Positions 5,013 through 55,223 are shown, counted from the stretch's first letter. The stretch: 64,000 nucleotides of DNA from Candidatus Zixiibacteriota bacterium (GCA_050117845.1 JASFLY010000003.1:24851-88850), one strand, 5' to 3'. A program made the numbers and translations. The notes: generated by a model from the letters alone, not told the origin.

Positions 5013-5095
5013 ATTATCAATCCGGCCTTACGCCGTCCTCAACCGCGTAACTTGCGATTTTACGATAACGTGAAGTCCCCGGCAAGGAAATCCGC

Positions 5096-6520
5096 TCAGT
5101 GACGTTTGTGGTCCGCCTCGAATACTGATTGTTCCTTGGCGATTTCAAGTATAGCGTCGCGGCTCTCTCCCCCGGCCACGTGCCGCGCCGCCAAAAGGCC
5201 CATCTTTATCGAATGGTCCATATTGTTGTAACGAAAGAGGCCGCCCCGACCGATGGTCAACAGGTTCTCGATGGGCCACACGAAATCCAGGACCGCCTTG
5301 AGCTTCCGTTTGTAGTCCACGTCGTATATGGGATACGAGTACTCGTCGTAGGAAGAGCCGTACTCCTCCACGTCGTCGGCCAGGTCCAGGTCCACGGCCG
5401 CGAGGTCGGCCAAGCAAATCTCTTTCACTTCCTCGTCCGACATGCGCCACTTCTCGTCGCCGGCGGTGCAGGCTATCTCGAGTTCCACCGCGCACTTCCC
5501 CGGCGGACACAGCGACGGCGACCAGTTGCGCAGATCCTGGACGCGGAAGAAGAAGTACTTCCGCTCGGGGATGTATATCCACGTATTGTCTGTTATCTCC
5601 GGACGGTCGACGACCAGGTTCAGGAAGCGCAGGCCCCGGAATTCCATTCGGCCCGCGGCCTCCGCGGCGTCCCGGTCCGCCGGCCTGATCATCTCGACCA
5701 GCCGCGGAAGCGGCGCCGTCGAAACGACGAAGTCGGCGGCCTCCGTCTCTTCCCGGCCGTCCCGGACGAACGAAACGCCGGTAACGCGGCCGCCCTCGCG
5801 GTTCACGCCGACCGCCCGGGCGCCGAGCCGCACCTCGGCCCCGGCGCTCCGCGCTCGTTCCGAAAGTTTTTCGAAGATCCGGCCTATCCCTCCCGGCGGG
5901 TAATGGAACTGCGTGGCGTAGGTCTTGGGTTGCTCTTTCTTCAGCTTCAATAAGAGGAGCAGGACGTCCCAGAGGTTTAACAGCGAGATACGTTGGGCGG
6001 CCCAATCCGCGGAAATCTCGCTCGGCGGCCGGCCCCAGAGCTTCTCGGTGTAGGGGCCGAAATATATGTCGTAGAGGGCCCGGCCGAATCGGTTCACGAC
6101 CCAGTCCTCGAACGATACGTCCCTGCGCGGGGCCAGCTTCTGGCGGGCCGTGGCCCCGAGATAATCCACGCCCGCCCGGAGCGTCGTGAACGGATTCATC
6201 CGCAGGAGGAGGTTCTTGAAATCCAGCGGATACGCGAAGTTCTTGCCGCGGAGGCGGATGGTGCTCTTCCGGTGCCGAACCTCGAGTTCGCCCCCCATCA
6301 GGTCGAAGACGAAGTCCCGGACCTCGTCGTCCCTGGTGATGAAGCGGTGGCCGCCCAGGTCGAAGGTCGCGCCGGCGAAGGATACGGTCCGGCACAGGCC
6401 GCCTACCCGGTCGTGGTCCTCGAGCACCAGGACGTCGAGGCCGGCGGCCGCCAGACGGTCCGCCGCCGTCAGGCCCGCCGGCCCGGCCCCGATTACGATT
6501 ACGCTTTTGGGGGACGTCAA
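5096..6520 (-). CDS. FAD-dependent oxidoreductase (amine-oxidase / UDP-galactopyranose-mutase-like NAD(P)/FAD-binding family)
   Basis: N-terminal Rossmann dinucleotide motif VIVIGAGPAGLTAADRLAAAGLDVLVLE…RVGG; 474 aa; first gene of the minus-strand operon with the TPR/TGase protein and the sugar transferase. Confidence 0.8.
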   Translation of the reverse strand: MTSPKSVIVIGAGPAGLTAADRLAAAGLDVLVLEDHDRVGGLCRTVSFAGATFDLGGHRFITRDDEVRDFVFDLMGGELEVRHRKSTIRLRGKNFAYPLDFKNLLLRMNPFTTLRAGVDYLGATARQKLAPRRDVSFEDWVVNRFGRALYDIYFGPYTEKLWGRPPSEISADWAAQRISLLNLWDVLLLLLKLKKEQPKTYATQFHYPPGGIGRIFEKLSERARSAGAEVRLGARAVGVNREGGRVTGVSFVRDGREETEAADFVVSTAPLPRLVEMIRPADRDAAEAAGRMEFRGLRFLNLVVDRPEITDNTWIYIPERKYFFFRVQDLRNWSPSLCPPGKCAVELEIACTAGDEKWRMSDEEVKEICLADLAAVDLDLADDVEEYGSSYDEYSYPIYDVDYKRKLKAVLDFVWPIENLLTIGRGGLFRYNNMDHSIKMGLLAARHVAGGESRDAILEIAKEQSVFEADHKRH

Positions 6521-17501: not shown

Positions 17502-18452
17502 ATGAAGCTTTTAATCGCGACACTAGTATTGTTGTTTATCGGCGCCGCGTACGCCGACGTTTGGATCGGCGTCGACGGGGGCCTCCGGCACTACTCGTAC
17601 GACGGCGAGTACATAAGGAGTTTCGACAGCTACCGCCGTCCCATCTCGCTGGTCCTCGACGCGGAGCGGAACCGCCTCTGGTTCCTGGACGCCTACGACT
17701 ACAAGCTGGTCTGCTTCGACGTGGAGGAGAAACGGGAACTACTGAGCGTCCCCAAGGTCGCCCACGCCCCGGCCATCGCCGCCGGCGACCTACGGATCTA
17801 CATGTTGGAGAAGCGGCCTTTCGAACCGTCCATCTCGGTCGATCCCAGCGACGGGTCGGTATGGATCGCGGATTTCTACGGCCACGAGGTGGCCCGGATC
17901 GACCTCGACGGCAACGAGATATTCCGGTCGGCCTCGTTCCACGAGCCGTTCTCCATCGCGACGCTGGGTGACTGCAACGCCTGGGTATCCGGCCGCATCC
18001 GAACCTTGACCCTTATAAGCCCGACCTGCGAAACGCTAAACAACCTCTCGGGCGTGAACGAAGCCCGCGCCCTGGCGTACGACGCGGCGCAGGATTTGGT
18101 GTGGGTAGCGGACTACCGCAACAACCGCGTCTTCGCGATAAACCGGGAAGGCCGGCTGAAAAAGAGAATCCCCGGCGTCGAACTGCCGGAGAAGCTGGCG
18201 GTGGACGAGGAACGAAGCACGGTGTGGGTCGCGACCAATTACAACGGTATAATAAAGATCTCGTCCGACAAGGAAGAGATAACCGCCACCATCCCCGAAC
18301 CCGATAGCGTCGTCGCGTTGGATATCGACTCGGAAGGCCGCCTGTGGGTGGCCTACGATAAAGCCGAAGAAGTAACCTGTTACTCGCCCGAGGCCGAAGA
18401 CGTCGTCACGATACGGCGCGTTAAAGGCGTGGTCGGCATCGCCGCCGAATAA
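17502..18452 (+). CDS. Secreted beta-propeller repeat protein (NHL/SMP-30-like), hypothetical
   Basis: Signal peptide, then repeated ~40-aa units with recurring patterns (…RLWFLDAYDYKLVCF…, …SVWIADFYGHEVARIDLDG…, …LVWVADYRNNRVFAINREG…, …TVWVATNYNGIIKI…, …RLWVAYDKAEEVTCY…). Confidence 0.5.
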   Translation: MKLLIATLVLLFIGAAYADVWIGVDGGLRHYSYDGEYIRSFDSYRRPISLVLDAERNRLWFLDAYDYKLVCFDVEEKRELLSVPKVAHAPAIAAGDLRIYMLEKRPFEPSISVDPSDGSVWIADFYGHEVARIDLDGNEIFRSASFHEPFSIATLGDCNAWVSGRIRTLTLISPTCETLNNLSGVNEARALAYDAAQDLVWVADYRNNRVFAINREGRLKKRIPGVELPEKLAVDEERSTVWVATNYNGIIKISSDKEEITATIPEPDSVVALDIDSEGRLWVAYDKAEEVTCYSPEAEDVVTIRRVKGVVGIAAE

Positions 18453-18490
18453 AAAACGGCCCGGGAGGAACGCCCCGGGCCGCTTTAACA
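18451..18490. terminator. Bidirectional rho-independent terminator between convergent genes
   Basis: aaaaaaCGGCCCGGGaggaacgCCCCGGGCCGcttta: GC stem flanked by an A-run on one side and a T-tract on the other. Confidence 0.5.
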
Positions 18491-18501
18491 GCCTGCCTAC
18501 G

Positions 18502-19179
18502 TTACCAACTCCACTCCAAGTGATATTGCTCGCCCGGTTTCATCCGGCCCACGTGCCACTCCAGCGTCGACCGGTCGGCCGCCAGCGCGAGTTCCGCCGG
18601 CCTCGCGTCCCGACCCTCCGACTTCACGTACGCCTTCGACGAATGCGGCAACCTCTCCGGCGGGAACTCCACGCGGAAGACGACGTCGTCCGTAGGGTAA
18701 TCCCCCACGAACATGAACGAGACGTCCTCGCCCGGGAAGGCGTCGTAAATGTTATAGGCCACGCGGCGCGACACCGCCTTCCCCGGCTCGAGCGGCGGTT
18801 TGAATACTACTTTAATAATGTAATACTTGCCTACGCTCATCCGTTCGCCGATTTCGCCCGGCGACACGTCGAAGTCGTCCAGCCGTCCCCGCGTAAAGAG
18901 ATTCCGGTCGCGTATGTCCGCCAGCGGCCGGTGCAGCGGGACCAACTCCTGGACCTTCTCGAAGTGGGCCACGTTTCCGGCCCCGTCGAGGATCTTCAGT
19001 CGCAACTCGGCGCTTTTAATCTTCAGGTAGCTACGCTGGAAGGTCAGCGCGGCCCAGATCACCGCGGCCACCATAAAGACGGCCAGCGCCACGCCGGGCC
19101 ATATCCAGCCCAATACGAAGCAGATTACGCTCGCCACGGCGAACGCGGCAACGAATATTAATTTGACCGGATTCTTCAC
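18502..19179 (-). CDS. Hypothetical membrane protein (two N-terminal TM helices)
   Basis: 225 aa; MKNPVKLIFVAAFAVASVICFVLGWIWPGVALAVFMVAAVIWAALTF… then a soluble domain; no family recognised. Confidence 0.45.
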   Translation of the reverse strand: MKNPVKLIFVAAFAVASVICFVLGWIWPGVALAVFMVAAVIWAALTFQRSYLKIKSAELRLKILDGAGNVAHFEKVQELVPLHRPLADIRDRNLFTRGRLDDFDVSPGEIGERMSVGKYYIIKVVFKPPLEPGKAVSRRVAYNIYDAFPGEDVSFMFVGDYPTDDVVFRVEFPPERLPHSSKAYVKSEGRDARPAELALAADRSTLEWHVGRMKPGEQYHLEWSW

Positions 19180-19191
19180 GTCACTCGCTCC

Positions 19192-20223
19192 TTAATATAT
19201 GAACATGGCGTCGCCGTACGAGTAGAACCGGTAGCCCTCTCGGACCGCGGCGCCGTACCATCCCAGAACGTTTTCCACGCCGCCGAACGCCGCCACGAGC
19301 GCCAGAAGGCTCGACCGCGGCAGGTGGAAATTCGTCAACAGCGCGTCGACGACTTTGAACTTGTAGCCGGGGTAAATATAGAGGTCCGTTTCCCCCCGGA
19401 ACGGGCCGACCATGCCGGCCTCGTCGGCCGCGGTCTCGAGGGCCCTTACGGCCGTCGTCCCGACCGCGACGACGCGGCGATGCTCGAGTTTCGCGGCGCT
19501 AATGGCCCGGGCCGCGGACCGGCTGATACTCATCTCCTCGCGCTCGACGTGGTGCTCCTCCAACGAATCGCCCCGGATGGGCTTGAAGGTCCCGTACGAG
19601 ACATGGAGGGTGATCTCGACTACCTCGACGCCCCGCTCCTTTATCCCGTCCAATATTTCCCGGGTGAAGTGCAGGCCCGCGGTAGGCGCCGCCACCGAAC
19701 CCCGGCGCCGCGCGTAGACCGTCTGGTAACGGCCCACGTCCTCCTCCGTCGGGCCGTCGGGCCTTTTAATGTACGGCGGCAGCGGCACCTTCCCCGTCTC
19801 GTCGACCACGGCCTCGACGTCGTCCGCCCCGTAGAACTCGACGACGCGCTCGGGCCCCGCCAGGACGCCGACGACCTCGGCGTGCAGGCCGTCCTCGCCG
19901 AATGTGAACCGCGCGCCCACGTCCGCCCGCCGGGCGGGGCGAGCCAAAACGCGGTAACGGCCGGGGGCCAGTTTGCGGAGGAGCAGCAGTTCGCCGTCGC
20001 TATCGCCGACGCGGCCCAAAAGGCGCGCCGGGTAAACCGACGTGTCGTTCAGGACCAGTACGTCCCCCTCCGCCAAAAGTTCCGGGAACTGGGCGAAGGA
20101 ACGGTGCTCCGGTTCGCCGCCGTCGCGGCGGCAGGCCAGAAGGCGGGCCCGGTCGCGCTCGGGCGCCGGCTGTTGGGCGATGAGGTCTCGGGGAAGGTCG
20201 TAGTCGATAATCTCGGTTTTCAT
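19192..20223 (-). CDS. queA: S-adenosylmethionine:tRNA ribosyltransferase-isomerase
   Basis: MKTEIIDYDLPRDLIAQQPA…PLPPYIKR…YQTVYA…GSVAAPTAGLHFT…VAVGTTAVRALE…LTNFHLPRSSLLALVAAF. Confidence 0.9.
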   Translation of the reverse strand: MKTEIIDYDLPRDLIAQQPAPERDRARLLACRRDGGEPEHRSFAQFPELLAEGDVLVLNDTSVYPARLLGRVGDSDGELLLLRKLAPGRYRVLARPARRADVGARFTFGEDGLHAEVVGVLAGPERVVEFYGADDVEAVVDETGKVPLPPYIKRPDGPTEEDVGRYQTVYARRRGSVAAPTAGLHFTREILDGIKERGVEVVEITLHVSYGTFKPIRGDSLEEHHVEREEMSISRSAARAISAAKLEHRRVVAVGTTAVRALETAADEAGMVGPFRGETDLYIYPGYKFKVVDALLTNFHLPRSSLLALVAAFGGVENVLGWYGAAVREGYRFYSYGDAMFIY

Positions 20224-20343
20224 AAGCCAGAAGGGATAATAACATAGGAGCGGCGGCCGTTAAAGGTAAAACCAGAAAAAGGTTAAACTTGCGCCCGGTT
20301 TATACCGGTGCTACTATGACCGAACGCTTGGAGAGGTATATCT

Positions 20344-21219
20344 ATGGTTAATTCTATGACGGGATTCGGTCGGGGCGAGGCCCCTTACGGCGACGGCGTC
20401 ATCGTCGTCGAGGTCACGACCGTAAACAGCCGGCACCTCGACGTCACCGTCCGGGGCCTCCGGGAATACGGCTCGCTCGAGCTGGACGTGCGGTCCCGCG
20501 TCGGCGAACGGCTGGGCAGGGGCAAAGCCCACGTCACGGTGGCCGTCCGGGGCACCTCGGCCGGGACCAAACGCGTCGTCTCCCACGTCGACCTGGCCCG
20601 GGAATACGTCAACGAATTCGAACGGCTGCGCTACGCCGTCGGCCTCAAGGGAAACCTCCCGCTGGAGGCGTTGACCTCCCGGGACGATTTCCTCACGATA
20701 GAGGAAGATACGGACGACGGCGCGCTGGGGGAAGGGGTCCTGGCCGCACTCGACGCCGCCCTCGGCCGCGTCTCCCAGATGCGGGCCGCGGAAGGCGAAA
20801 AGCTGGCCGCGGACCTTTCGGAGCGGCTCGAACGTTTGGGCAAACTCTACGACGACGTGGCGAGCCGGGCCCCGGAAGTGGCGGTCGCCTACCGGGACCG
20901 GCTGCAGGCGCGGATATCCGAGCTGACCGACGGGGCCGGCCTGGATCCCGGCCGCCTGGAAAACGAGACCGCCCTCTTCGCCGAACGCTGCGACATCAGC
21001 GAGGAGATAGTCCGGAGTCGGGCTCACGCCAAGGCGTTCGCCGACGCCCTCGGCGGCGACGGACGGGCGGGAAGGCGCCTCGACTTCCTCGCGGTGGAGC
21101 TGAACCGCGAGGCCAACACCATCGCCGCCAAGGCCCAGGACGCCGGCATCGCGTCCCTGGCCATAGAAATAAAAGACCTGCTCGAGCAGATCCGCGAGCA
21201 GGTGCAGAATATCGAGTAG
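20344..21219 (+). CDS. yicC: YicC/YloC family stress-induced protein
   Basis: N-terminal MTGFGRGE motif, …VEVTTVNSRHLDV…, and C-terminal …LAVELNREANTIAAKAQD…IKDLLEQIREQVQNIE. Confidence 0.85.
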   Translation: MVNSMTGFGRGEAPYGDGVIVVEVTTVNSRHLDVTVRGLREYGSLELDVRSRVGERLGRGKAHVTVAVRGTSAGTKRVVSHVDLAREYVNEFERLRYAVGLKGNLPLEALTSRDDFLTIEEDTDDGALGEGVLAALDAALGRVSQMRAAEGEKLAADLSERLERLGKLYDDVASRAPEVAVAYRDRLQARISELTDGAGLDPGRLENETALFAERCDISEEIVRSRAHAKAFADALGGDGRAGRRLDFLAVELNREANTIAAKAQDAGIASLAIEIKDLLEQIREQVQNIE

Positions 21220-21231
21220 TATTAACCGGCC

Positions 21232-22419
21232 TTAATATTTCCTGACGGCCGCGACGGACCTGATAACCTCGTCCCAGGCGCGGCCGTGTACGTCCCAGGT
21301 ATACTTCTGTTCGACGGCCTGCCGCCCCCAGCGGCCGTACTCCTCACGCAGTTTCTCGTCCCGCAACAGGCGCGCCACGGCCGCCGCGAATTCGGCCGGT
21401 TCGTCCGCGACGATAAAATCGCGCCCCGCCACCAGGTCCATCCCCTCCACGCCCCGCGTCGTGCAAACCACGGGCAGGCCCGCCGCCATCGCCTCTATCA
21501 CTTTCATCTTCATCCCCGCGCCGAGGCGCATCGGGCACACCGACACCTGGCAGCGCCGTAAATAAGCCTTCATGTCCGGAACGGCTCCGGTAACGACGAC
21601 GCCCTCCCGCCGGGCCAACGCCCGCACTTCGCCGGTCGGGTTCTTGCCCACGATATGGAACGTGGCCTCCGGCACCGCGTTCCTCACCCGGGGGAATATC
21701 TCGTTTGCGAAGTAAGCCGCAGCGTCCGCGTTCGGCGGGTAGTCCATGACGCCCGAAAAAACTATCGAGAACGGCTCCCGCGATACGCCCTCGTCGGCGG
21801 CGACGTCCGTCCCGAAGGGGGCGTAGTAAACGGGAAGGCCCGGGCAAAGCTCACCGATGACCTCCGCGTCGCGCCGGGCCACGAGGACGCACGCGTCGTA
21901 CCGGCCGTACGTCCGGCGCTCGTAACTTTTAACCTTCCAATATTGCAGGAGGAAATAGAGGGAGGCGGCGGGGTTGAGGCGCAGGCCCAACTGGCGCTTG
22001 TAGTACAGGGACGTGGCGTCGAGCGGCGCGATTATCTTCGGCGTGTTCTGTACGTCCACGGTATACTGCGCCATGTTGATGTGGCCGCCGATGATGACGT
22101 CAAAATCCCGGCGCCGCAGGAGTTTCCCCAAAGCCGCCGCGAAGTCCCGGTTCCGGTAGAGCAGGACGCCGAACGGCCAGATGGTCAACATACTCCATAA
22201 TCGCCGCAGGAGGGTCTTGTCGAATTCGTGGGGGACGAGGACGAGTTCCCCCACCATATCCCGGACGACCGCGATATCCTCCGGGGCGTCGCCCGAGGTC
22301 ATGGCGAGCATCGTAACGTCGTGCTCGGGCCGGAAGCGCCGCAATAAATTATACACCACCGCCCGGTTCGAATCGGTCGGAGGATAAGGGACTTCCGAGG
22401 CAATAATGAGAATCTTCAC
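21232..22419 (-). CDS. Glycosyltransferase family 4 (GT-B fold)
   Basis: 395 aa; MKILIIASEVPYPPTDSNRAVVYNLL… and a C-terminal GT1/GT4 motif (…VSVCPMRLGAGMKMKVIEAMAAGLPVVCTTRGVEG…). Confidence 0.8.
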   Translation of the reverse strand: MKILIIASEVPYPPTDSNRAVVYNLLRRFRPEHDVTMLAMTSGDAPEDIAVVRDMVGELVLVPHEFDKTLLRRLWSMLTIWPFGVLLYRNRDFAAALGKLLRRRDFDVIIGGHINMAQYTVDVQNTPKIIAPLDATSLYYKRQLGLRLNPAASLYFLLQYWKVKSYERRTYGRYDACVLVARRDAEVIGELCPGLPVYYAPFGTDVAADEGVSREPFSIVFSGVMDYPPNADAAAYFANEIFPRVRNAVPEATFHIVGKNPTGEVRALARREGVVVTGAVPDMKAYLRRCQVSVCPMRLGAGMKMKVIEAMAAGLPVVCTTRGVEGMDLVAGRDFIVADEPAEFAAAVARLLRDEKLREEYGRWGRQAVEQKYTWDVHGRAWDEVIRSVAAVRKY

Positions 22420-41299: not shown

Positions 41300-41830
41300 T
41301 TAAACGTCGTCGGGTTCCATCCATTCCACTACGTAACGGTTAACTTCGGCGTTTTCGGCTCGATTGTCCAGGACCGTAACTCGCACGTTTAAGGCCCCGA
41401 GACCCGTGAAGCCCGCCGTTAAAACGCCCCGAATGAATTCGACGCTTCTAATAATCGAGGAATCTTTAATAACCAAACGGCCCGGCCTGTATTCTTCGAC
41501 GACGTATTCCCCGGTCCCCGGTCCCCGCACGAAATGGGGATATACGCTCGCTACCTTCTCGGCGAAAGCCCCCGTCGACGTTATACCCAATTCCCTAAGT
41601 TCGGACGTTACTACGTTGGTCAACTCGTTGCCCATAATAACCAACGCCTGCGGCGATATATGTTCGAGTAAGTATTCTAACGTCGCGACGTACGGCTCCC
41701 CTTCATACCACCCGTTCGGGTCGAACTCCCTTTCGAAATATCCCCCCAGGTCGGGCCTTACGATATCCGCGATATGGGGAAATACGTTTTTTATACCCTG
41801 GTATAAAGCGCCCCGGACTTCGATTGCCAT
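41300..41830 (-). CDS. Paralog 1 of a tandem family of ~175-aa cytoplasmic proteins of unknown function
   Basis: MAIEVRGALYQGIKNVFPHIADIVRPDLGGYFEREFDPNGWYEGEPYVATLEYLLEHISPQALVIMGNELTNV…FAEKVASVYPHFVRGPGTGEYVVEEYRPGRLVIKD…LNVRVTVLDNRAENAEVNRYVVEWMEPDDV. The ATG is directly preceded by GGAGG; the track extends the ORF to a GTG at 41881. Confidence 0.6.
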   Translation of the reverse strand: MAIEVRGALYQGIKNVFPHIADIVRPDLGGYFEREFDPNGWYEGEPYVATLEYLLEHISPQALVIMGNELTNVVTSELRELGITSTGAFAEKVASVYPHFVRGPGTGEYVVEEYRPGRLVIKDSSIIRSVEFIRGVLTAGFTGLGALNVRVTVLDNRAENAEVNRYVVEWMEPDDV

Positions 41831-41973
41831 CCTCCTCGCTGCGTGTTTACCGTAACCGTCCCCCCGCCGGAACCGGCCCACGCCGACGTACGCCCGGGCT
41901 ATTAAAATATCACTTGTTACACAATACTACCTCCCGCCTCTATCCGCGCGTTACCGTAAAAATCTCGACGCTA

Positions 41974-42504
41974 TTAATCGTCGTCGGTTTCCAGCCACTC
42001 CACGAGGTACCTATTCGCTTCCGCACCCGAAGCCCGGTTGTCCAGCAGGATAACCCGCACGTTCAAAGCCCCGAAAACGGAAAAAGTCGCCGCCAGAACT
42101 CCCCTCGTAAATTCGGCGTTCGAAATAATCGAAGACTCCCTCACCACCATACGGCCCGGACGATATTCCTCAACGAGCCATTCACCTGTTTCGGGGCCCC
42201 TTACGAATCGGGGATAGACCTGACCTACTTTTTCCGCAAACGTTCTGATCGACGTTATCCCGAGGTGCTTGAGTTCCTCGGCTATTATGCTAGTTAATTC
42301 CTTCCCCAAAATAACTATCGCTTGAGGCGATATGCGTTAGTATAAATACTCCAACGCCGCTATGTAATACTCCCCTTCATACCACGCGGCCGGGTTGATT
42401 TCACCCTCGAAATGTTTTCCCAACTCGGGCGGTAAAATTTCCGCGATATCGGGAAAAACATTCTTCACACTCTGTAGCAAAACCCCCAAGACCTCGATAG
42501 CGGG
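41974..42504 (-). pseudogene. Paralog 2 of the same family, with an in-frame TAA
   Basis: The C-terminal 111 aa are a track ORF (MGKELTSIIAEEL…YLVEWLETDDD). The upstream in-frame translation reads …PAIEVLGVLLQSVKNVFPDIAEILPPELGKHFEGEINPAAWYEGEYYIAALEYLY*RISPQAIVILGKELTS…, where the conserved LEH is replaced by Y-stop-R (TAA at ~42337–42339). No ATG precedes IEV. Confidence 0.5.
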
Positions 42505-42649
42505 CCACCTCGCTGTTCGTTTACTTCTTCATCCGCTCCAGCAAGTATCGGCATGTCGCACCGGCTCAAGCCCAGCCGTAACACCCCCTATACGCTTCCC
42601 TATCACCCCCCGTGTTTCCCGCCGCCGATTCCGCCCCCACCGAACGCTT

Positions 42650-43180
42650 TTACTTCCCGTCGGCCTCGATCCATTCCACCAGCAACCGGTTATACTCCGC
42701 GCCCTTCGCCCTTTCGTTAAGAACCGTGATCCGGATATTTACGGCGCCGAACACGTTAAACAAAGCTTTTAATACACCCAGTACGAAACTAATATTCCAG
42801 ACTATTCCGGTTTCCCTTACTACCATTCTTCCGGGACGGTACTCCTCCGGAAACCACCCGCCGGCCCCCGGGCCCCGTACGAATTGGGGATAAAGTTCGG
42901 CCACTTTCTCCGCGAAGTCCCGCGTCGTTTTAATCCCCGTCGCCCACATCATCGCCTTCCCCACTTCGGTCAACTCGTTCCCCAACAACACCATTGCCTG
43001 CGGCGAAATGTGTTCCAGCAAGTATTCCACCGCCGCTACGTACGGTTCACCCTCATACCACGCGGCCGGGTCGATTTCTCTTTCGAAGTATTCCCCGAGT
43101 TCCGGCGGCACTATTTCCGCGATATGAGGGAATACGTTCTTTATTGCCTGGTAGAATACGCCCCGTACTTCGATTTCTGC
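42650..43180 (-). CDS. Paralog 3 of the same family; the conserved N-terminus lacks a canonical start codon
   Basis: Full in-frame similarity runs from AEIEVRGVFYQAIKNVFPHIAEIVPPELGEYFEREIDPAAWYEGEPYVAAVEYLLEHISPQAMVLLGNELTEV… to …EYNRLLVEWIEADGK. The track ORF starts at an internal GTG (VPPELG). The paralog-4 stop lies immediately upstream, and an aaggggg SD-like element sits 5 nt before an ATC codon. Confidence 0.5.
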   Translation of the reverse strand, partial: AEIEVRGVFYQAIKNVFPHIAEIVPPELGEYFEREIDPAAWYEGEPYVAAVEYLLEHISPQAMVLLGNELTEVGKAMMWATGIKTTRDFAEKVAELYPQFVRGPGAGGWFPEEYRPGRMVVRETGIVWNISFVLGVLKALFNVFGAVNIRITVLNERAKGAEYNRLLVEWIEADGK

Positions 43181-43195
43181 CCCCTTTCGCGTGCG

Positions 43196-43720
43196 CTACG
43201 CCATTATCCACTCCATCAGGTAACGGTCGGCCCCGCCTTCCCCGCTCCGCGTATCGATCATTTCGACGCGGATGTTATAAGCTCCCGTAGATTCCAAAGC
43301 CCGCCGCACTATTCCGACGCAAATATCGGGCTGTGCGAAGTCGCCGTCGTAACGCAATATCGACCGGCCTTCGCGGTATTCCTCCAACGTCCAGCCGCCG
43401 CCCTCTCCCCTAACGAATTCGCGGTATACGTCGTTAACCTTTTCCATGAAGTTACGCGGCGTATTAATCCCCAACTCCCGCAACTGCGACTCGAAAAGGT
43501 CGATAAGTCTCGTGCCCACCAGGGCGTTAACGGTCGGGGACATGTGCTTAATTAAATACTCCCGCGCTCGCAGGTACAAGTCCGCCGAATACCAACCGTC
43601 GGCCTTTACTTCCCGGAACAACTTGGCGAGCTCCGGGTCGACGACGTCCCCTAGATGCGGGAATACCCCTTTCACCATAAGGTATAAGACTCCGCGGACT
43701 TCGATTTTGGGCGTCATCAT
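43196..43720 (-). CDS. Paralog 4 (most divergent) of the same family
   Basis: MMTPKIEVRGVLYLMVKGVFPHLGDVVDPELAKLFREVKADGWYSADLYLRAREYLIKHMSPTVNALVGTRLIDL…FMEKVNDVYREFVRGEGGGWTLEEYREGRSILRYD…YNIRVEMIDTRSGEGGADRYLMEWIMA; RBS ggggag 8 nt upstream of ATGATG. Confidence 0.6.
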   Translation of the reverse strand: MMTPKIEVRGVLYLMVKGVFPHLGDVVDPELAKLFREVKADGWYSADLYLRAREYLIKHMSPTVNALVGTRLIDLFESQLRELGINTPRNFMEKVNDVYREFVRGEGGGWTLEEYREGRSILRYDGDFAQPDICVGIVRRALESTGAYNIRVEMIDTRSGEGGADRYLMEWIMA

Positions 43721-46999: not shown

Positions 47000-47581
47000 T
47001 TACTTCTGTTCCAGCCGATCCAGAATCCAGCGGCCGTCGTTCCGGCCTTCCGGCGCTTTCTCGTCCGGGAAGTTGCCGAACGCTTCTACCAGGCTCTCGC
47101 CCTTTATTTTTTCCTGGAGCTTGAGGCAGCCGTGCATCAGCGCCTCGGGGCGCGGCGGGCAACCGGGGACGAATACGTCCACCGGGATTATCTTGTCGAT
47201 ACCCTTGAGGACGCTGTAAGCGTCGTAGTAGAAGCCGCCGCCCGATATGGCGCAGGAGCCCATCGCGATGACGTAACGCGGCTCGGCGAGCTGCTCCCAG
47301 AGGCGGCGGATGCGGGGGGCCATCTTGAGGGTGATGGTCCCGGAGATGAACATCATGTCGGACTGACGGGGCGTGGCCCGGAACATCATGCCGTAGCGGT
47401 CGAGGTCGTAGCGCGAGGCCCCGGCGGCCATCATCTCGATGGCGCAACAGGCCAGGCCGAAGATCATGTACCACACGCTCGACGCCCGCGACCAGTTGAG
47501 AACCTTCTCGGTACTCATCGTCAACAAGCTGCCGCCCGGCAGCTTCTCCCAGTAGACGGGGAGCTTCGCGATTACGCCCAC
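47000..47581 (-). CDS. nuoB: NADH-quinone oxidoreductase subunit B
   Basis: …[27 protein letters not shown]…MGSCAISGG…[11 protein letters not shown]…; conserved cluster-N2 cysteines. Confidence 0.9.
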
Positions 47582-47937
47582 TTCAGGGCCCCTTTCCGCC
47601 AGGCGTAGGCGAGCGCGATAAGCAGTATCCCGATGAATACCATCATCTCGACGAAGGCGTACAGGCCCAACTTCTTCGCCGCTACCGCCCAGGGCAAAAG
47701 AAAAGCCGCCTCGACGTCGAAGACCACGAACGCCAGGGCGATCAGATAAAAGCGAACGTTATACTGGACCCAGGCGGTACCCCGGGTCGTTTCGCCGCAC
47801 TCGTAAATATCGCGCTTCATGCGGCTCGGCCGCTGGGGGCGAATGAACCAAGCCCCAATCAGCGCGGCGGCGACAAAGAACAGGCCGAACCCTATAAAGA
47901 ACGCGACGAACGCGTAATCCGTCAGCAAACGTAACAC
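47572..47937 (-). CDS. nuoA: NADH-quinone oxidoreductase subunit A
   Basis: 121 aa, 3 TM helices; …[43 protein letters not shown]…. Confidence 0.85.
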
Positions 47938-48009
47938 CTCACTAGATTTTAATCACTCGATAACACAGCTCCAGGCCGAAGTCAAGCTTTTTGTGATTAT
48001 CGGCACGGA

Positions 48010-48038
48010 TTGACCCGTGCGGCCCCTCGTGCTAATAT
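48010..48038 (+). promoter_or_regulatory. Consensus-like sigma70 promoter (TTGACC-17-TAATAT) overlapping the annotated 5' end of the radical SAM gene
   Basis: ggaTTGACCcgtgcggcccctcgtgcTAATATacgatg. The predicted TSS at ~48045 is adjacent to an in-frame GTG at 48047; the track GTG at 48017 lies inside the spacer. Confidence 0.5.
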
Positions 48039-49195
48039 ACGATGGCGTGTCCGACATCCTACATTATGTAAAAAAAGTCGCCCGGCGCTCGCCGGGCGAA
48101 GTCCTCCGGGAGGCGGCCAAACGAAGCCGCGTCGCCCTAAAACTGGAGCGGCCCCTAGGCCGCGGCCGGGCCCTCTCGCCGTACGCCGTCAGCTTCTGGG
48201 TCACCCGGCGCTGCAACCTCCGGTGCGATATGTGTTGGGTCGAGCAGTCCCGCGAACTCGAGGGCGACGGCTACCTCCTGTCGGAAAACGAGCTGAATTT
48301 GTCCGAGTTGACCGGCGTGGTGGACGACCTGGCGCGGCGCTGGCGACCCCGCATCGGCATCACCGGCGGCGAGCCCTTCGTCCGCCGCGACACGCTCGAC
48401 TTCATCCGGCACGTCAAAAACCGGGGCCTACGCTGCGGCGTCAACACCAACGGGACCTTCCTCGCCCGCGACGCCGAAGAGCTGATCGAGGCCGGCCTCG
48501 ACAGCATCATGGTCTCCGTGGACGGTCCGCCCGCCGTCCACGACCAACAGCGCCGCGTCCCCGGCACCTTCGTAAAAACGAAGGAAGGCATCGACGCCCT
48601 GCTGGCCGCCCGGGGCCGGGCCGGCGCCGGCCGGCCCTACGTCAAACTCACCTGCACCGTCACGAACGCCAACGTCGACGCGTTGGCCGACATACCCGCG
48701 CTCTTCACCGACCTCCCGCTCGACGAGTTCACGTTCCAGCATCTCTGGTTCACCGAGGCCGAGACCGCCCGGGCCCAACGAAAACTCTTCACCGAAATCT
48801 TCGGCCAGGACACGACGTACCTGGAAGGCTTCGTCTCGCCGGAAATCCCGCCGGTGGACGTGGGTCGGCTCCGGGGCGCGGTCGAGGCCGTCGCGAGAAA
48901 GAGCTGGCCCTTCCCCGTTAACTTCTATCCGGCGCTGGGGCCGGACGAACTGGGCCCCTTCTACGAGGACCCGCGGCACGCGTTCCGCCGGTCCTGTTTC
49001 TCCCGCTGGCTCCGCGTGGACGTACTGCCCGACGGCACCGTCACGCCCTGCCTCGGCCTGGCGGTGGGAAACGTACGCGAAAAGCCGATAAACGAAATAT
49101 GGAACGGCCCGACTTTCCGCCGCTTCCGCCGCGAGCTGGGCCGAAGAGGAACCTTTCCCGGCTGCGAACGATGTTGCGGTTTATTCAGTGATTAA
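48017..49195 (+). CDS. Radical SAM protein with C-terminal SPASM/twitch Cys-rich domain (true start probably the GTG at ~48047)
   Basis: CxxxCxxC motif (…FWVTRRCNLRCDMCWVE…), a GGEP-like motif (…IGITGGEPFVRRD…) and a C-terminal Cys cluster (…VTPCLGLAVGNV…FPGCERCCGLF). Confidence 0.8.
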   Translation: MRPLVLIYDGVSDILHYVKKVARRSPGEVLREAAKRSRVALKLERPLGRGRALSPYAVSFWVTRRCNLRCDMCWVEQSRELEGDGYLLSENELNLSELTGVVDDLARRWRPRIGITGGEPFVRRDTLDFIRHVKNRGLRCGVNTNGTFLARDAEELIEAGLDSIMVSVDGPPAVHDQQRRVPGTFVKTKEGIDALLAARGRAGAGRPYVKLTCTVTNANVDALADIPALFTDLPLDEFTFQHLWFTEAETARAQRKLFTEIFGQDTTYLEGFVSPEIPPVDVGRLRGAVEAVARKSWPFPVNFYPALGPDELGPFYEDPRHAFRRSCFSRWLRVDVLPDGTVTPCLGLAVGNVREKPINEIWNGPTFRRFRRELGRRGTFPGCERCCGLFSD

Positions 49196-49210
49196 CGCCT
49201 AAAAGACGGC

Positions 49211-49239
49211 TTGAAGCGAACGGCGGGCCGTGTTAATAT
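49211..49239 (+). promoter_or_regulatory. Sigma70-type promoter (TTGAAG-17-TAATAT) for the first GT-C-like gene
   Basis: ggcTTGAAGcgaacggcgggccgtgtTAATATcc, with the same TAATAT -10 as the rSAM promoter; ~70-nt leader to the ATG at 49318. Confidence 0.45.
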
Positions 49240-49317
49240 CCTCGCCTAACTCCGGCCTCCAAGTCCCCCGGGCCGGCCGAATACCCAACCCTTTTACCGC
49301 TCATTACCGCCGAAGTT

Positions 49318-50928
49318 ATGGACGATAACAAACGCGAACGTAACGACCGCATACGCTTATGGGCCGGGCGCCTGGCGCCGGCCGGAGCGTTCGCCTTCAA
49401 GCTGGCCGTATCGCTGGGCTTCCTCGTATATTACGTCCGGCACTTTAAACGGATAATGTACATCGCCGACGGCCCCGGCCGCGGCATCGAGGCGTACACT
49501 CTCGCCTACGCCGGGTTCGACCTCTTCCCCCGGCACCAGTTCCCGCCGCTGCCTCTTTGGATATGGTCGGGCCTGTTGAAGATTTGGCCGGACATTTACT
49601 TCACCGGGACGGCGATGAACATCGTCGCCGGCTGCGGCATCGCCCTCTTCCTTTACCTCCTGGGGCGGCGCCTGGCCGGGCCGTTGGCGGGAGCGGTGGC
49701 GGTAATCGCGTTCACCTTCTCTCCCGTTCACCACAACCTGACGGTCACGATGGGCATGGCGGAGCCGGTCTTTTACTTCTGGCTCGTGGCGGGCGTGTTC
49801 TTCGCGGCCCGGGCGGAGGCCGGCCTGCGGGGCGCGGCGGGCGCGGCCTTCTGCTTCGCCGCCGCGGCGCTCAGCCGCTATGAGGGTACGGCCTTCCTCA
49901 TCCTGTACTCGGCCTATCGCCTCTTCCGCCACCGGCCCCGGACGGTCCTGGCCTGGGTCCTCTACTTTATCCCGCTCGCCGTCGCGGGCGTCTTCGTGGC
50001 CCACAAGGGCCTCCAGCCCAGCCACGCGGGTTTGTGGCCGGCGCTCGCCGGCGTCCGCGCCGACACCTCGGCGGTCCTTTCCAACCCGACGTGGTACCGG
50101 CGCCTGGGTTACGGCGTATACCGTTTCCTCTTCGACGGCCGCGCCACGGCCGTACTGGCCTTCGCCGGTGCGATTCTCGTCTTCCGAAAAAAGTGGCTGC
50201 GCGCCGACCGCTTCATGATCTGGCTGGCGTGGGCGCTTATCTTCACCGCCCTCACGGCTATCGCCGTCATAGTCGGCCTGGGCTTCTGCCCGGAGCGCTA
50301 CTTCGCCACGCCGCTCATGCTCATCTTCCCGTTCGCCGGCCTGGCCGTGGTGGAACTCGTCCAGTTCGTAAAACCGCCCGCGAAGGCCGTCAAGGCCGTC
50401 GTCGTGGGCGCGATCCTAATCACGTCGCTCTACGTCACGGCGCGATGGGATTACGTGATAATCAAGCCCGGATACGGCTTCCCCGGCCCCTGCAACACCC
50501 GACCCGCCTTCGCCACCGAGACGGCCCTTCGGCTCCGGGAACTCTGGCGCGGCGGCCGGCTCGGCCCCCAGGAAGTCGTGCTGATAGAAATCGGCGAACC
50601 GGGTTCGACCGGCTCGTGGCGTTTCGAGGAATACCCGTTGCGGGCCTTCAGCGACCACCCCCTGCACTTCCTACGGGAGACGGAATCCGAGCTGACGCCG
50701 GAGCTCGATTACCTCGTACCGCTCCTGCGCGAGAACGACATGCGTATCGCGATCGTTTGTAGCGATACGAACCGGGAGCTTCTGCGCCGGCACTACGACG
50801 AAATCCTCCCGGACGCCGTCATATACGACAACCCGACGCAGACCATAGTGGTCCTACGCGAGAGGTGGGAAAAGATACCCGACTTCGCGTCCCGTATTTG
50901 CCCGGACGAAGTCACGGTATACGAATAG
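49318..50928 (+). CDS. Polytopic membrane protein, putative GT-C-fold glycosyltransferase (ArnT/PMT-like), copy 1
   Basis: 536 aa. About 11 predicted TM helices fill the first ~350 aa, then a soluble C-terminal ~180-aa domain. It is paralogous to the next gene, with shared blocks (…YIADGPGRGIEAYTLAYAGFDLF…FSPVHHNLTVTMGMAEP…ALSRYEGTAFLILYSAYRLFRHRPR…GYGFPGPC…). Confidence 0.55.
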   Translation: MDDNKRERNDRIRLWAGRLAPAGAFAFKLAVSLGFLVYYVRHFKRIMYIADGPGRGIEAYTLAYAGFDLFPRHQFPPLPLWIWSGLLKIWPDIYFTGTAMNIVAGCGIALFLYLLGRRLAGPLAGAVAVIAFTFSPVHHNLTVTMGMAEPVFYFWLVAGVFFAARAEAGLRGAAGAAFCFAAAALSRYEGTAFLILYSAYRLFRHRPRTVLAWVLYFIPLAVAGVFVAHKGLQPSHAGLWPALAGVRADTSAVLSNPTWYRRLGYGVYRFLFDGRATAVLAFAGAILVFRKKWLRADRFMIWLAWALIFTALTAIAVIVGLGFCPERYFATPLMLIFPFAGLAVVELVQFVKPPAKAVKAVVVGAILITSLYVTARWDYVIIKPGYGFPGPCNTRPAFATETALRLRELWRGGRLGPQEVVLIEIGEPGSTGSWRFEEYPLRAFSDHPLHFLRETESELTPELDYLVPLLRENDMRIAIVCSDTNRELLRRHYDEILPDAVIYDNPTQTIVVLRERWEKIPDFASRICPDEVTVYE

Positions 50929-51005
50929 CGCGCCCCCGCCGGGAACGGCGGCGGGCACGGCACAAGTAGGAAGGGATCGTAGTTACGCACACCGAGAGGG
51001 AAGCG

Positions 51006-52610
51006 GTGCATTCCCGGAAGAAAACGGAGTGGTTGGGTCGGCTCGCGCCGTGGGGATTCTTCGCCCTTAAAATCCTCGTATCCATCTATTCCCTCCACCG
51101 GTACATGCCCCACTACCTAAGGTTGACCTATATCGCCGACGGGCCGGCCCGCGGCATAGAGGCCTTCAACCTGGCGTACGGCGACTTCGGCGTTTTTAAA
51201 ACCTACCAATTCCTGCCCATGCAGATATGGCTCTGGGCGGGCCTCCTTAAAATATATCCCGACGTTTATTGGACAGGGACGGCGCTGAACGTCGCGTTCG
51301 CCGCCGGCACGACGGTCCTCCTTTACCTCCTGGGGCGCGAACTCGCGGGGCCGGCGGCCGGGGCGCTGGCGGCCGTCCTCTTTATCTTTTCGCCCGTGCA
51401 CCATTGCCTGACCATCTCGGAGGGGATGGCGGAAAGCATATTCTTCTTCTGGAACGCCGCCGGCATATACGCCGCGGCCCGGGCGGCGCGGGAAGGACGC
51501 GGCGAGTGGGTGGCCGGCCTCTGCTTCGGCGCCGCCGCCCTGACGCGCTACGAGAGCGCGGCCCTGCTCATCCTCTACTCGGCCTACCGGCTGTTCCGAG
51601 CGCGGCCGCGGAGCGCCGGCGGGTGGCTGCTCTGGGCGGCGCCTTTGGCGGCCGTGGCCGTTGTACTGGGCCACAAGGCCATGCTCGCCGCGCACGTGGG
51701 CGTTCGTCACGACCTCGCCGGCGTCAAGGGCGACAGCGAACTCGTACTGCCCGGGGCGTTGTGGTACGAGCGGGTCGCCTACGGCCTGACGCGCGTCTGG
51801 CGGGACGGCCGGGTGTTCGGCCTCCTGGGCGCCGCCGGCTTCTTCCTCGTTTGGCTGCGCGGCATACGCAACGAAAGCCGGCTCCTGATATGGGGCGGCC
51901 TCGCCGCCCTGCTGGTCGGCGTATCGACCGTATTCGCGGTAGTCGGCCTGGGCCTGGGGCCGGAGCGGCACTTCTCCATCATACTGATGTTCTTGTTCCC
52001 CTTCGCCGGCCTTACCGTCACGGAGGCGTGGCGCCGGGCGCGGGGCCTCGCGTTAAAAATCGTCCTGATCGTATTATTGGCGGCCGCCGGCGCTTACACC
52101 GTTTATTTCGACTCGGCCATCAAGGACTACGGTTACGGCTTCCCGGGGCCATGTTACTCCTGCATGACCGTGGACGCGGAGCTGGCCCTCAAGCTCCGGG
52201 ACCTCTGGCGCTCGGGGGAACTCGGGCCGGACGAGATAATATATATGGAACAAAACGACGGCAATTTCAGCAACTACCCGATCCAGGCGTACAGCAACCG
52301 GCCGCGGAACTTCTACGTCAGCCCCGCCTACCAGTCGGAACGGGACCTCTGGTACCTCGATTATATAATGGAGACGAACGGGTTCCGCGTCGCCATATTC
52401 GTGAACGCGGTTACCCGCCACCAGTTGAAATCCTTCTATCGGGCCCTGGGAAAGAAGTACGTCATCTACGAAACGCCGGCCCACTCGCTCGTCGTGCGGC
52501 GCGACGGATGGCCGCGCGGCCTCCCCGATTTCCGGTCGGCCCGCCACCCCCGGCAATCCCGCGTAGTCGACTACGGCTCGCCCGACGCCGTAATAAAAAG
52601 GACGCCCTGA
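51006..52610 (+). CDS. Paralog of the preceding putative GT-C-fold membrane glycosyltransferase, copy 2
   Basis: 534 aa with the same architecture and blocks (…YIADGPARGIEAFNLAYGDFGVF…FSPVHHCLTISEGMAES…ALTRYESAALLILYSAYRLFRARPR…GYGFPGPC…). Confidence 0.55.
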   Translation: MHSRKKTEWLGRLAPWGFFALKILVSIYSLHRYMPHYLRLTYIADGPARGIEAFNLAYGDFGVFKTYQFLPMQIWLWAGLLKIYPDVYWTGTALNVAFAAGTTVLLYLLGRELAGPAAGALAAVLFIFSPVHHCLTISEGMAESIFFFWNAAGIYAAARAAREGRGEWVAGLCFGAAALTRYESAALLILYSAYRLFRARPRSAGGWLLWAAPLAAVAVVLGHKAMLAAHVGVRHDLAGVKGDSELVLPGALWYERVAYGLTRVWRDGRVFGLLGAAGFFLVWLRGIRNESRLLIWGGLAALLVGVSTVFAVVGLGLGPERHFSIILMFLFPFAGLTVTEAWRRARGLALKIVLIVLLAAAGAYTVYFDSAIKDYGYGFPGPCYSCMTVDAELALKLRDLWRSGELGPDEIIYMEQNDGNFSNYPIQAYSNRPRNFYVSPAYQSERDLWYLDYIMETNGFRVAIFVNAVTRHQLKSFYRALGKKYVIYETPAHSLVVRRDGWPRGLPDFRSARHPRQSRVVDYGSPDAVIKRTP

Positions 52611-52639
52611 CGGGCGCCCGGCGTCGGCGTAGGATTAGC

Positions 52640-53389
52640 TTATTGTTCGACCGCGGCCTGCGGCATTCCCAAATGCACCAGGCCCAGGTTCATAAAGCCG
52701 TTCACGATTTTCAATAGGTACAACTGGTCGTCGATGTTCAGCCGCCGGGCCATATCCCGGATGGTCAACCCCTGTTCGGCCAGGTGGAGAATCTCCCGCT
52801 CCATGGAGGAGAATTCGTAGTCGCCGCGCAACAGCTCCGCCAGCGGCCTCGTCTCTTTGTGGATAACGAGATCCACCGACGGGATCCTCCGGCTGATACG
52901 CTTGTAGTCGTCCATCCTCTTCGTCGATTCCATCACGAGTTCCGTAACCGAGATGGAGACCGTTATGTCCTCGTCGAGGCGGTAGGGCGTAAGCTCGTAG
53001 GTGAACGTCCCGTCCTCGATCAGGAACATGTCGAAGAGTTTTATTTTAATTTTACGTTGGATGAAGTCGACCAGCGTCTCCCGGCCTATCGTCCCCCGGT
53101 GCAGGAGGAAAGTGCCGAAGCGGGGCTTCTCGGCGCCGGAGTCCTCGTATTCGCGCAGGGCCCGCGTCAATTGCTCGCGCTTGATGACGCCGGCGTTCAC
53201 GAGATCCTCGCCGAGGGGCGCGTATTTCTTGCTGGAATCGGCGTAAATTACGAAGCCGTCGTCGAAGTAGGTGCGATACCAAACGCCGAATTCGTCGTCC
53301 ACCGTCAGGATGCAGGTCCGCCGGCCCAGTTGGACTATCTGAAACAGGTCCACTAACGTCAGGTCTCGTACGTTGCCGATTACCGCCAT
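52640..53389 (-). CDS. DUF4388 domain-containing protein
   Basis: N-terminal MAVIGNVRDLTLVDLFQIVQLGRRTCILTV… matches the DUF4388 signature (GxLxxxxLxDLLQxL…tGxL). Confidence 0.5.
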   Translation of the reverse strand: MAVIGNVRDLTLVDLFQIVQLGRRTCILTVDDEFGVWYRTYFDDGFVIYADSSKKYAPLGEDLVNAGVIKREQLTRALREYEDSGAEKPRFGTFLLHRGTIGRETLVDFIQRKIKIKLFDMFLIEDGTFTYELTPYRLDEDITVSISVTELVMESTKRMDDYKRISRRIPSVDLVIHKETRPLAELLRGDYEFSSMEREILHLAEQGLTIRDMARRLNIDDQLYLLKIVNGFMNLGLVHLGMPQAAVEQ

Positions 53390-54803: not shown

Positions 54804-55223
54804 GTGGCCCGGCCGGACAAAACCCTCCCCGAGGGCACGACCTTCCGCGGCGAGAAGCTGAACGCGAAAGATAAAGCCCTGCTCGCCGCCGCCGAAGCGG
54901 ACGACCTCAAGGCGCGGGACATCGTCGTTCTCGACGTCCGGGAGTTCCCTTCGCTGGCCGAGTACTTCGTAATATGCACCGGCGACACCAAGCGGCACCT
55001 CCGCGGTATCGCCGGCCGCCTGAAGGACGCTGCCGACGAGCACGACTTCGCCGTCCATCACACCGAGGGCCTCGACATGGCCCGGTGGATACTTGTGGAC
55101 CTCAATAACGTCGTCGTCCACATCTTCGACCCGGAAGCGCGGAACCATTACGAGCTCGAGCGCCTCTGGGGCGACGCGGCCCGCGTCCCCTTCGCCCCTC
55201 CCCAACCCCCCGGAAAAAAATAA
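54804..55223 (+). CDS. rsfS: Ribosome silencing factor RsfS (Iojap family)
   Basis: …KARDIVVLDVREFPSLAEYFVICTGDTKRHLRGIAGRLKD…ARWILVDLNNVVVHIF…; the real start may lie downstream of the first in-frame start. Confidence 0.8.
   Translation: MARPDKTLPEGTTFRGEKLNAKDKALLAAAEADDLKARDIVVLDVREFPSLAEYFVICTGDTKRHLRGIAGRLKDAADEHDFAVHHTEGLDMARWILVDLNNVVVHIFDPEARNHYELERLWGDAARVPFAPPQPPGKK

Follow-up and report, generated by a model that had tools for sequence, protein, structure and literature searches.

BlsE of the blasticidin S pathway (PDB 7VOB/7VOC) is a radical S-adenosylmethionine (SAM) decarboxylase acting at C5 of glucuronic acid in cytosylglucuronic acid (PMC3715490); its substrate is a sugar attached to a nucleobase. 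BtrN, MoaA and DesII are radical SAM enzymes of the Twitch type, with a single auxiliary cluster. In the ArnC/ArnT, GtrB/GtrC and DprE/Emb-Aft systems, a lipid-linked sugar, synthesised or remodelled in the cytoplasm, is then transferred in the periplasm by a glycosyltransferase of the GT-C fold. Radical SAM enzymes modifying the sugar head groups of lipids have precedent (PMC13459092). No description of a radical SAM enzyme paired with GT-C enzymes was found in the searchable literature. Such a pairing is described here from a stretch of 64,000 nucleotides, the window, of Candidatus Zixiibacteriota bacterium (GCA_050117845.1 JASFLY010000003.1:24851-88850). GC content is ~64% across the window, and the best named homologues point to a genome of the Zixibacteria/Coatesbacteria type. 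The locus consists of three genes in one direction:

48017-49195, plus strand, radical SAM gene; probable true start GTG 48047
49318-50928, plus strand, GT-C paralogue 1, PMT_2 family, 536 aa
51006-52610, plus strand, GT-C paralogue 2, PMT_2 family, 534 aa

An earlier annotation of the window made from the DNA alone (the sequence-only reading) had given these reading frames, and its coordinates and descriptions were correct. Neither component has a curated family or a close relative that has been characterised; each is a new and divergent member of a superfamily that is well known. The region is best interpreted as one of several states in which a variable glycan island of the cell envelope is found. 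Resembles the Arn, Gtr and DprE/Emb-Aft systems in the GT-C fold, in an Asp conserved where the first external loop begins, in having several GT-C paralogues side by side and, in sister loci, in the addition of a membrane-anchored glycosyltransferase of family 2 (GT2). Differs from them in that remodelling would be done by a radical SAM enzyme, not by an NAD- or FAD-dependent one. Unlike the Arn and Gtr systems, the window has no GT2 or flippase gene of this kind, and its GT-C proteins have no NCBIfam match to ArnT.

Related loci were retrieved with a narrower radical SAM alignment, the broad alignment being too divergent for retrieval. Loci L025-L054 (Streptococcus and other weak matches), in which only the radical SAM core is matched, were left out. 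The more distant radical SAM homologues (29-45% identity) are found in different contexts, mostly adjoining genes for glycosyltransferases of families 4, 9 and 2 (GT4, GT9, GT2) or Wzy-like genes. The C-terminal signature GCxRCCGLFSD is common to homologues above ~38% identity. The gene arrangements (R, radical SAM gene) are:

L004/L005 and L019: GT4, R, GT9 and methyltransferase, beside mreB
L006: GT4, R and GT9, with a GT2 and a Wzy_C gene
L007: two GT4 genes upstream of R
P0050 locus: R, then GT4
L020: GT4, then R
L023: GT4, R, another radical SAM gene and a sulfotransferase gene

From one of these loci outside the lineage to another, the GT4 partners are orthologues, and so are the GT9 partners. 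Glycosyltransferase neighbours of three folds recur across phyla, which is the strongest evidence for a role of the radical SAM enzyme in glycan synthesis; the family is therefore tied to glycan synthesis and not to peptide or cofactor maturation.

A part of the window, 17502-22419 (genes for an NHL/SGL protein, QueA, YicC and GT4), partly mirrors the P0050 locus, where the radical SAM homologue lies between YicC and GT4. The GT4 gene of this part (21232-22419) was considered as an orthologue of the GT4 partners in L004, L006, L019 and L020 and was rejected (~25% identity, partial length).

Within the lineage, the island is enclosed by two genes of the opposite strand:

47572-47937, minus strand, nuoA, the end of the nuo operon
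52640-53389, minus strand, DUF4388/PatA_N gene, convergent to GT-C paralogue 2

Relatives vary in what lies between nuoA and the DUF4388 gene, where they carry 0-4 GT-C copies. The radical SAM and GT-C genes are co-located in ~13 island instances. The states holding both (C1 and C2, the two GT-C types; R2, second radical SAM gene) are:

R, C1 and C2: window, L010, L016, L063
R and C1: L003/L013
R and C2: L008, L058, L068
R, C1 and two C2: L001, L061
R, C2, C1 and C2: L062
R, three C1 and C2: L018
R, GT2a, R2, GT-C and GT2b: L055 (3637-9501), L070 (3550-9506), L069 (fragment)

In the last state, five genes form a tight operon whose junctions overlap or measure 12 nt; it encodes the radical SAM enzyme, a membrane GT2, a distinct second radical SAM/SPASM-like protein, a GT-C protein and a soluble GT2. 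In L056, at 4878-5300, the nuoA-proximal conserved block survives, with ATTAAC replacing the TTGAC of the -35 and with no -10. This remnant marks where the radical SAM gene, absent from this locus, was deleted.

The radical SAM protein matches Pfam Radical_SAM (E=8e-20) and SPASM (E=8e-14, 52 bits). Residues C66, C70 and C73 (CX3CX2C) and G117-G118-E119-P120 (GGEP) are invariant in 30 homologues and place it in the Radical SAM superfamily (PF04055). Conserved C-terminal cysteines are five: C327, C345, C383, C386 and C387. A full SPASM domain, with two auxiliary clusters, is defined by the seven-cysteine motif CX9-15GX4C - gap - CX2CX5CX3C - gap - C, which is absent despite the Pfam match. The C-terminal domain fits a truncated SPASM domain of the Twitch-like type with one predicted auxiliary cluster, because only five C-terminal cysteines are available and the chain ends 5 residues past CxxCC. 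Agrees with Twitch enzymes in the number and spacing of cysteines; BlsE, SkfB and MoaA, at the top of the fold ranking, belong to the Twitch type. The spacing C-x17-C-x37-CxxC resembles what we take to be the pattern of BtrN. NF033640 is matched at 67.8 bits (cut-off 170). In the radical SAM/SPASM assignment of the sequence-only reading the radical SAM part stands, and full SPASM is replaced by the Twitch-like domain. No NCBIfam equivalog was obtained (best score 105 bits, cut-off 525). By profile comparison the enzyme is outside every housekeeping equivalog, with all NCBIfam scores far below the cut-offs.

The AlphaFold2 (AF2) model of the radical SAM enzyme (pLDDT 92.9) resembles radical SAM structures. 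BlsE, its closest relative among characterised enzymes, is the best PDB match both by sequence (E=1.7e-13) and by fold (Foldseek E=4e-16, TM-score 0.72 normalised to BlsE). It is followed in the fold ranking by SkfB, SuiB, MoaA, DesII and viperin; CteB is also among the matches. MoaA, DesII and viperin act on nucleotides or sugar nucleotides. GGEP and the unusual CxxxCxMC motif are common to the enzyme and BlsE (PMC3715490). Differs from BlsE in a helical insert (~residues 245-330), in the five conserved C-terminal cysteines and in the genetic context, which is that of envelope glycosyltransferases, not of a nucleoside-antibiotic cluster. A single auxiliary cluster, as in BtrN, MoaA and DesII, is predicted, the last two being among the top fold matches; the sequence matches none of their NCBIfam equivalogs.

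The two membrane proteins are 43% identical over 523 residues (E=2e-125). Both match PMT_2 (PF13231; 32.4 bits for paralogue 1 and 35.6 bits for paralogue 2, gathering cut-off 26.1). The AF2 model of paralogue 1, built on 23 homologues (pLDDT 82, pTM 0.85), has a predicted ~10-11 transmembrane (TM) helices and a predicted C-terminal alpha/beta domain (~residues 395-536). In the Foldseek search of this model against PDB, the first 28 ranks are all GT-C enzymes (probability 1.0), among them STT3/AglB/PglB, ArnT, ALG9/12, AftA and Pmt4; TM-scores to STT3 and ArnT are ~0.55-0.57 (ArnT 0.57). Transporters are matched at E>0.1 only, and the transporter alternative is therefore excluded. Both membrane proteins are glycosyltransferases of the GT-C fold. 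The sequence-only reading had described a tandem paralogous pair of ~535 aa with ~11 TM helices and a C-terminal soluble domain, all of which agrees with the lengths, identity and model found here; the classification by hidden Markov models that it proposed places both proteins in PMT_2 above the cut-off.

Its label of ArnT/PMT-like GT-C enzymes holds for the fold and for the PMT_2 family, and does not extend to GT39 proper, ArnT or the oligosaccharyltransferases. PF02366 (PMT) is matched by paralogue 2 at 20.6 bits (cut-off 22.7) and is not matched by paralogue 1. No MIR domain is found by Pfam in either paralogue. The loop-1 motif is A-D-G-P, not the DE of GT39 O-mannosyltransferases. The oligosaccharyltransferase motif WWDXG is absent, neither paralogue holding WWD or WW. 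No NCBIfam match is obtained at E<=0.01 for either paralogue, so named equivalogs, including ArnT (GT83), do not apply. STT3/AglB/PglB are the highest-ranking structural matches; the paralogues differ from them in the lack of WWDXG, in a much smaller C-terminal domain and in identity of 11-16%. When PDB sequences were searched with a profile of the GT-C alignment, no GT-C enzyme came up at E<=1.

Residues D51, R55, R187, E189 and R327 are invariant in the GT-C family and kept in 10 distant relatives (to E ~1e-8); D51 is invariant in 23 family members and in those 10. D51 and R55 are located in the motif YIADGPxR, directly after TM1. Conservation of D51 agrees with the GT-C hallmark, an acidic residue in the first external loop, and a periplasmic position of D51 is suggested by the positive-inside N-terminus.

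A word-indexed search gave ~40 clusters of the GT-C family, all from the Zixibacteria/Coatesbacteria lineage. A second such search, run with the GT-C profile, added no relatives to the same 39 clusters. When 1.84 billion representatives were scanned exhaustively with HMMER, 10 proteins scored E<1e-30; the next matches (<=135 bits) are generic PMT_2 proteins. To judge by these searches, the family is small, confined to Zixibacteria and Coatesbacteria and sharply apart from other GT-C enzymes. Orthologues of paralogue 1 are 65-75% identical to it, and those of paralogue 2 (L008, L010, L016, L068) 62-73%. The paralogues, at 62-75% to their orthologues, are far less similar to each other, which therefore indicates an old duplication followed by differential loss and re-duplication.

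Two promoters precede the genes of the locus:

48010-48038, plus strand, radical SAM promoter, TTGACC-17-TAATAT with TGn extended -10, found by promoter scan
49211-49239, plus strand, promoter of the GT-C pair, TTGAAG-17-TAATAT with TGn extended -10, read from the sequence

In both promoters position and spacing are kept and the spacer sequence varies; this holds for the radical SAM promoter in 10 related loci and for the GT-C promoter, ahead of the first GT-C gene, in 7. In L018, each tandem GT-C duplicate carries its own promoter copy. Both promoters are judged real on this conservation. The pattern TTGNNN-N14-TGnTAnnnT is found at 6 sites in the window (0.5 expected), each preceding a gene; the likeness of the two promoters is therefore that of a general sigma-70 consensus and not of a private regulon. 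The matching promoters pointed out in the sequence-only reading are accordingly genuine and conserved, but do not point to special co-regulation.

The radical SAM promoter overlaps the annotated GTG start at 48017, and homologues begin at residues 11-14 of the annotated reading frame, 8-13 nt past the -10; the true start is therefore probably GTG 48047. The distance of 8-13 nt is found in L001, L003, L008, L010, L017, L018, L024 and L055, so the radical SAM mRNA is predicted to be leaderless or nearly leaderless. An ATG at 48042 is out of frame; the in-frame start in the window is GTG 48047. No promoter-like site is present in the 77-nt gap ahead of GT-C paralogue 2, which has a GAGAGGGAAG ribosome-binding site ahead of its GTG start and is presumably co-transcribed with paralogue 1. 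A CRP/FNR-like palindrome, TGTGA-N6-GCACG, is located at 47992-48007 between the divergent nuoA and radical SAM promoters. It is kept in 10 related loci, as is a longer conserved block (GAAGTCAAGC-TTTTGTGAT...), and may be where one regulator acts on both complex I and the radical SAM gene.

Other features of the setting are as follows:

54804-55223, open reading frame (ORF) of 139 aa, beyond the DUF4388 gene with genes for an aminotransferase, ArgS and an NFACT protein
52600-52619, GC-rich hairpin between the convergent GT-C paralogue 2 and DUF4388 genes, T-run on the minus strand, found by terminator scan
41300-41881, minus strand, first of four tandem paralogous ORFs between nuoJ and nuoI
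41974-42309, minus strand, second
42650-43111, minus strand, third
43196-43720, minus strand, fourth

The 139-aa ORF occupies the RsfS position of relatives. As scored, the hairpin serves the DUF4388 gene, on the minus strand, as terminator; it also overlaps the final codons of GT-C paralogue 2. In all relatives, the DUF4388/PatA_N gene stays beside the variable island. Its product has sub-threshold matches to the MshEN-type cyclic di-GMP-binding motif (31.7 bits, threshold 38) and to the C-terminal region of the cyclic di-GMP-activated glycosyltransferase NfrB. The four nuoJ-nuoI ORFs (41300-43720) are ~110-190 aa long; the two that were scanned, 41300-41881 and 43196-43720, have no Pfam match. 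Relatives hold 0-1 copy, one with a faint DUF2378 match. GC content of this stretch is lower (0.55) and GC skew is strongly negative. Nothing but genes for ribosomal proteins (L21, L27) and for small secreted proteins was found in another low-GC stretch, at 24-26 kb. The window gave no match when scanned for Rfam families or tRNAs.

With a chance only a little short of even, we infer that the radical SAM and GT-C enzymes act in one envelope-glycan pathway, in which a sugar precursor is remodelled and a lipid-linked sugar is then transferred. The radical SAM enzyme would be a cytoplasmic Twitch enzyme in which a single auxiliary [4Fe-4S] cluster accompanies the radical SAM cluster. Its 5'-deoxyadenosyl radical would remodel the sugar on the cytoplasmic side while nucleotide- or lipid-linked, the nucleotide-linked option being considered because of the BlsE, DesII and MoaA-like relatives. 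Candidate chemistry is C5-type decarboxylation, epimerisation or dehydrogenation, as in BlsE, DesII and BtrN. The GT-C paralogues, facing the periplasm, would transfer a polyprenyl-phosphate-linked sugar to an envelope acceptor, with the Asp51/Arg55 motif after TM1 as the putative catalytic loop. The L055/L070 operon, through its membrane GT2, supplies the component that a lipid-linked donor pathway requires and that is missing from the window. A narrower version is decidedly unlikely: oxygen-independent sugar remodelling would yield an unusual donor (e.g. a pentose by C5 decarboxylation of a hexuronate, or an epimer), used by GT4 and GT9 enzymes in some phyla and, after loading on polyprenyl phosphate, by the GT-C enzymes of Zixibacteria and Coatesbacteria.

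The main rival, itself rather unlikely, is that the genes are neighbours with no shared pathway, each enzyme working independently in envelope or other metabolism, and that the nuoA-DUF4388 site is a permissive variable insertion site. It shares much of its evidence with the observations that weigh against a common pathway. Radical SAM and GT-C genes are transcribed separately, each unit from a promoter of its own, and the likeness of these promoters is the genome-wide consensus. Either part occurs without the other: L022 has R by itself, and L011 has R together with a membrane GT2 but no GT-C; C1 and C2 are found without R in L056/L064, where a decayed -35 remnant is left, and in L059; a C2-like gene is found alone at another genomic site in L057 and L065-67. 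The tight GT-C partner in the L055/L070 operon is a different radical SAM protein. The block from nuo to NFACT (nuo, radical SAM, GT-C, DUF4388, aminotransferase, RsfS, ArgS, NFACT) is syntenic across relatives, and adjacency of radical SAM and GT-C genes within the lineage is therefore weak evidence for function. Further points on the same side are that the homologues in L014 and L015 have no glycosyltransferase neighbour; that identity to BlsE is only ~20% and the score for its equivalog TIGR04466 is 60.6 bits (cut-off 400); that no homologue of the sister-locus GT2 genes is found in the window and no flippase-like gene at 44-60 kb of it; and that the three-component arrangement of the Gtr and Arn systems, a polyprenyl-phosphate GT2 synthase and a flippase beside the GT-C gene, is not seen in the window. 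Against mere proximity, radical SAM homologues adjoin glycosyltransferases again in unrelated contexts and phyla, and every gene gained or lost at the island is a glycosyltransferase or radical SAM gene. The module of radical chemistry and glycosylation proposed by the sequence-only reading is upheld in so far as glycosyltransferase neighbours are found in other phyla and a five-gene operon in sister loci; the coupling is not obligatory, and a polyprenyl-phosphate sugar synthase or flippase is lacking in the window. Its suggested analysis of neighbourhood conservation gave the same double result, a recurring glycosyltransferase context with each part occurring without the other. Two outcomes that it had named as speaking against it, membrane proteins classified as transporters and a radical SAM enzyme of a housekeeping family unrelated to its neighbours in other genomes, were not observed, because the membrane proteins are GT-C enzymes and the radical SAM enzyme falls in no housekeeping equivalog and has homologues adjoining glycosyltransferases.

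Other roles of the radical SAM enzyme are less probable still. Remodelling of a glycolipid head group after transfer (e.g. contraction of the ring to give a cyclitol, the reaction proposed for HpnJ and calditol synthase), with the GT-C enzymes then extending or using the lipid, is improbable. HpnI/HpnJ and calditol synthase offer, by analogy, the same logic of a glycosyltransferase and a sugar-acting radical SAM enzyme, and such lipid enzymes are precedented (PMC13459092); in L011, L055 and L070 the radical SAM gene adjoins a GT2 with C-terminal TM helices, which has weak HpnI- and HpnB-like matches. However, the best NCBIfam matches of this GT2 type are MftF-like, all below cut-off, and HpnI is matched at 26-30 bits (cut-off 310). 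Unlike the HpnI/HpnJ and calditol synthase cases, no significant family match, no hopanoid or archaeal lipid context and no other lipid-synthesis genes nearby are found, and the closest structural relatives use soluble nucleoside or nucleotide substrates. A cofactor- or respiration-linked enzyme (complex I encoded by nuo, tetrapyrrole or molybdenum cofactor), with incidental GT-C adjacency, is highly improbable. It could account for the divergent promoter region shared with nuoA and conserved, palindrome included, in 11 loci, for the top partial NCBIfam matches (AhbD, AhbC, NirJ, MoaA) and for the ferredoxin-domain genes beside the L015 homologue; but those matches are 4- to 7-fold below the cut-offs and confined to the radical SAM core, homologues outside the lineage are near glycosyltransferases and not nuo genes, and L056 and L059 keep the nuo operon after loss of the radical SAM gene. 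Scarcely probable at all is a peptide or protein maturase, either like those of peptides that are ribosomally synthesised and then modified post-translationally (RiPPs) or like an anaerobic sulfatase-maturating enzyme, its target being a small peptide or else the membrane proteins encoded next to it. The Pfam SPASM match and the presence of SkfB, SuiB and CteB among fold matches agree with it. Opposed to it are the single set of auxiliary-cluster cysteines and the neighbours across phyla, which are glycosyltransferases of three folds, not peptides, proteases or transporters. In the AF2 model the N-terminal ~55 residues ahead of the core form three short helices with no beta-sheet, and a RiPP recognition element (RRE) or PqqD-like domain is absent; no credible precursor-peptide ORF is present or conserved in the intergenic gaps of the locus, as the sequence-only reading had noted. 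No RRE, precursor gene or NCBIfam maturase model above cut-off was found, and the RiPP maturase reading in particular was rejected because RRE and precursor ORF are lacking.

Although no curated equivalog covers the radical SAM family, it recurs beside glycosyltransferases in several phyla. Acting with the GT-C enzymes, it would form a new version of a known scheme, donor remodelling in the cytoplasm followed by GT-C transfer in the periplasm. If the oxygen-independent formation of an unusual donor were true, the pathway would parallel, under anaerobic conditions, the logic of ArnA-ArnT or DprE1/2-Emb/Aft, and would be the first to join radical SAM and GT-C enzymes. The natural variants of the island (0-4 GT-C genes, with or without GT2, with or without a second radical SAM gene, radical SAM gene lost) are ready comparisons for testing the link. 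If the radical SAM and GT-C enzymes do act together, radical chemistry joins the supply of lipid-linked sugar donors, and a handle is gained on the envelope glycans of uncultured candidate phyla.

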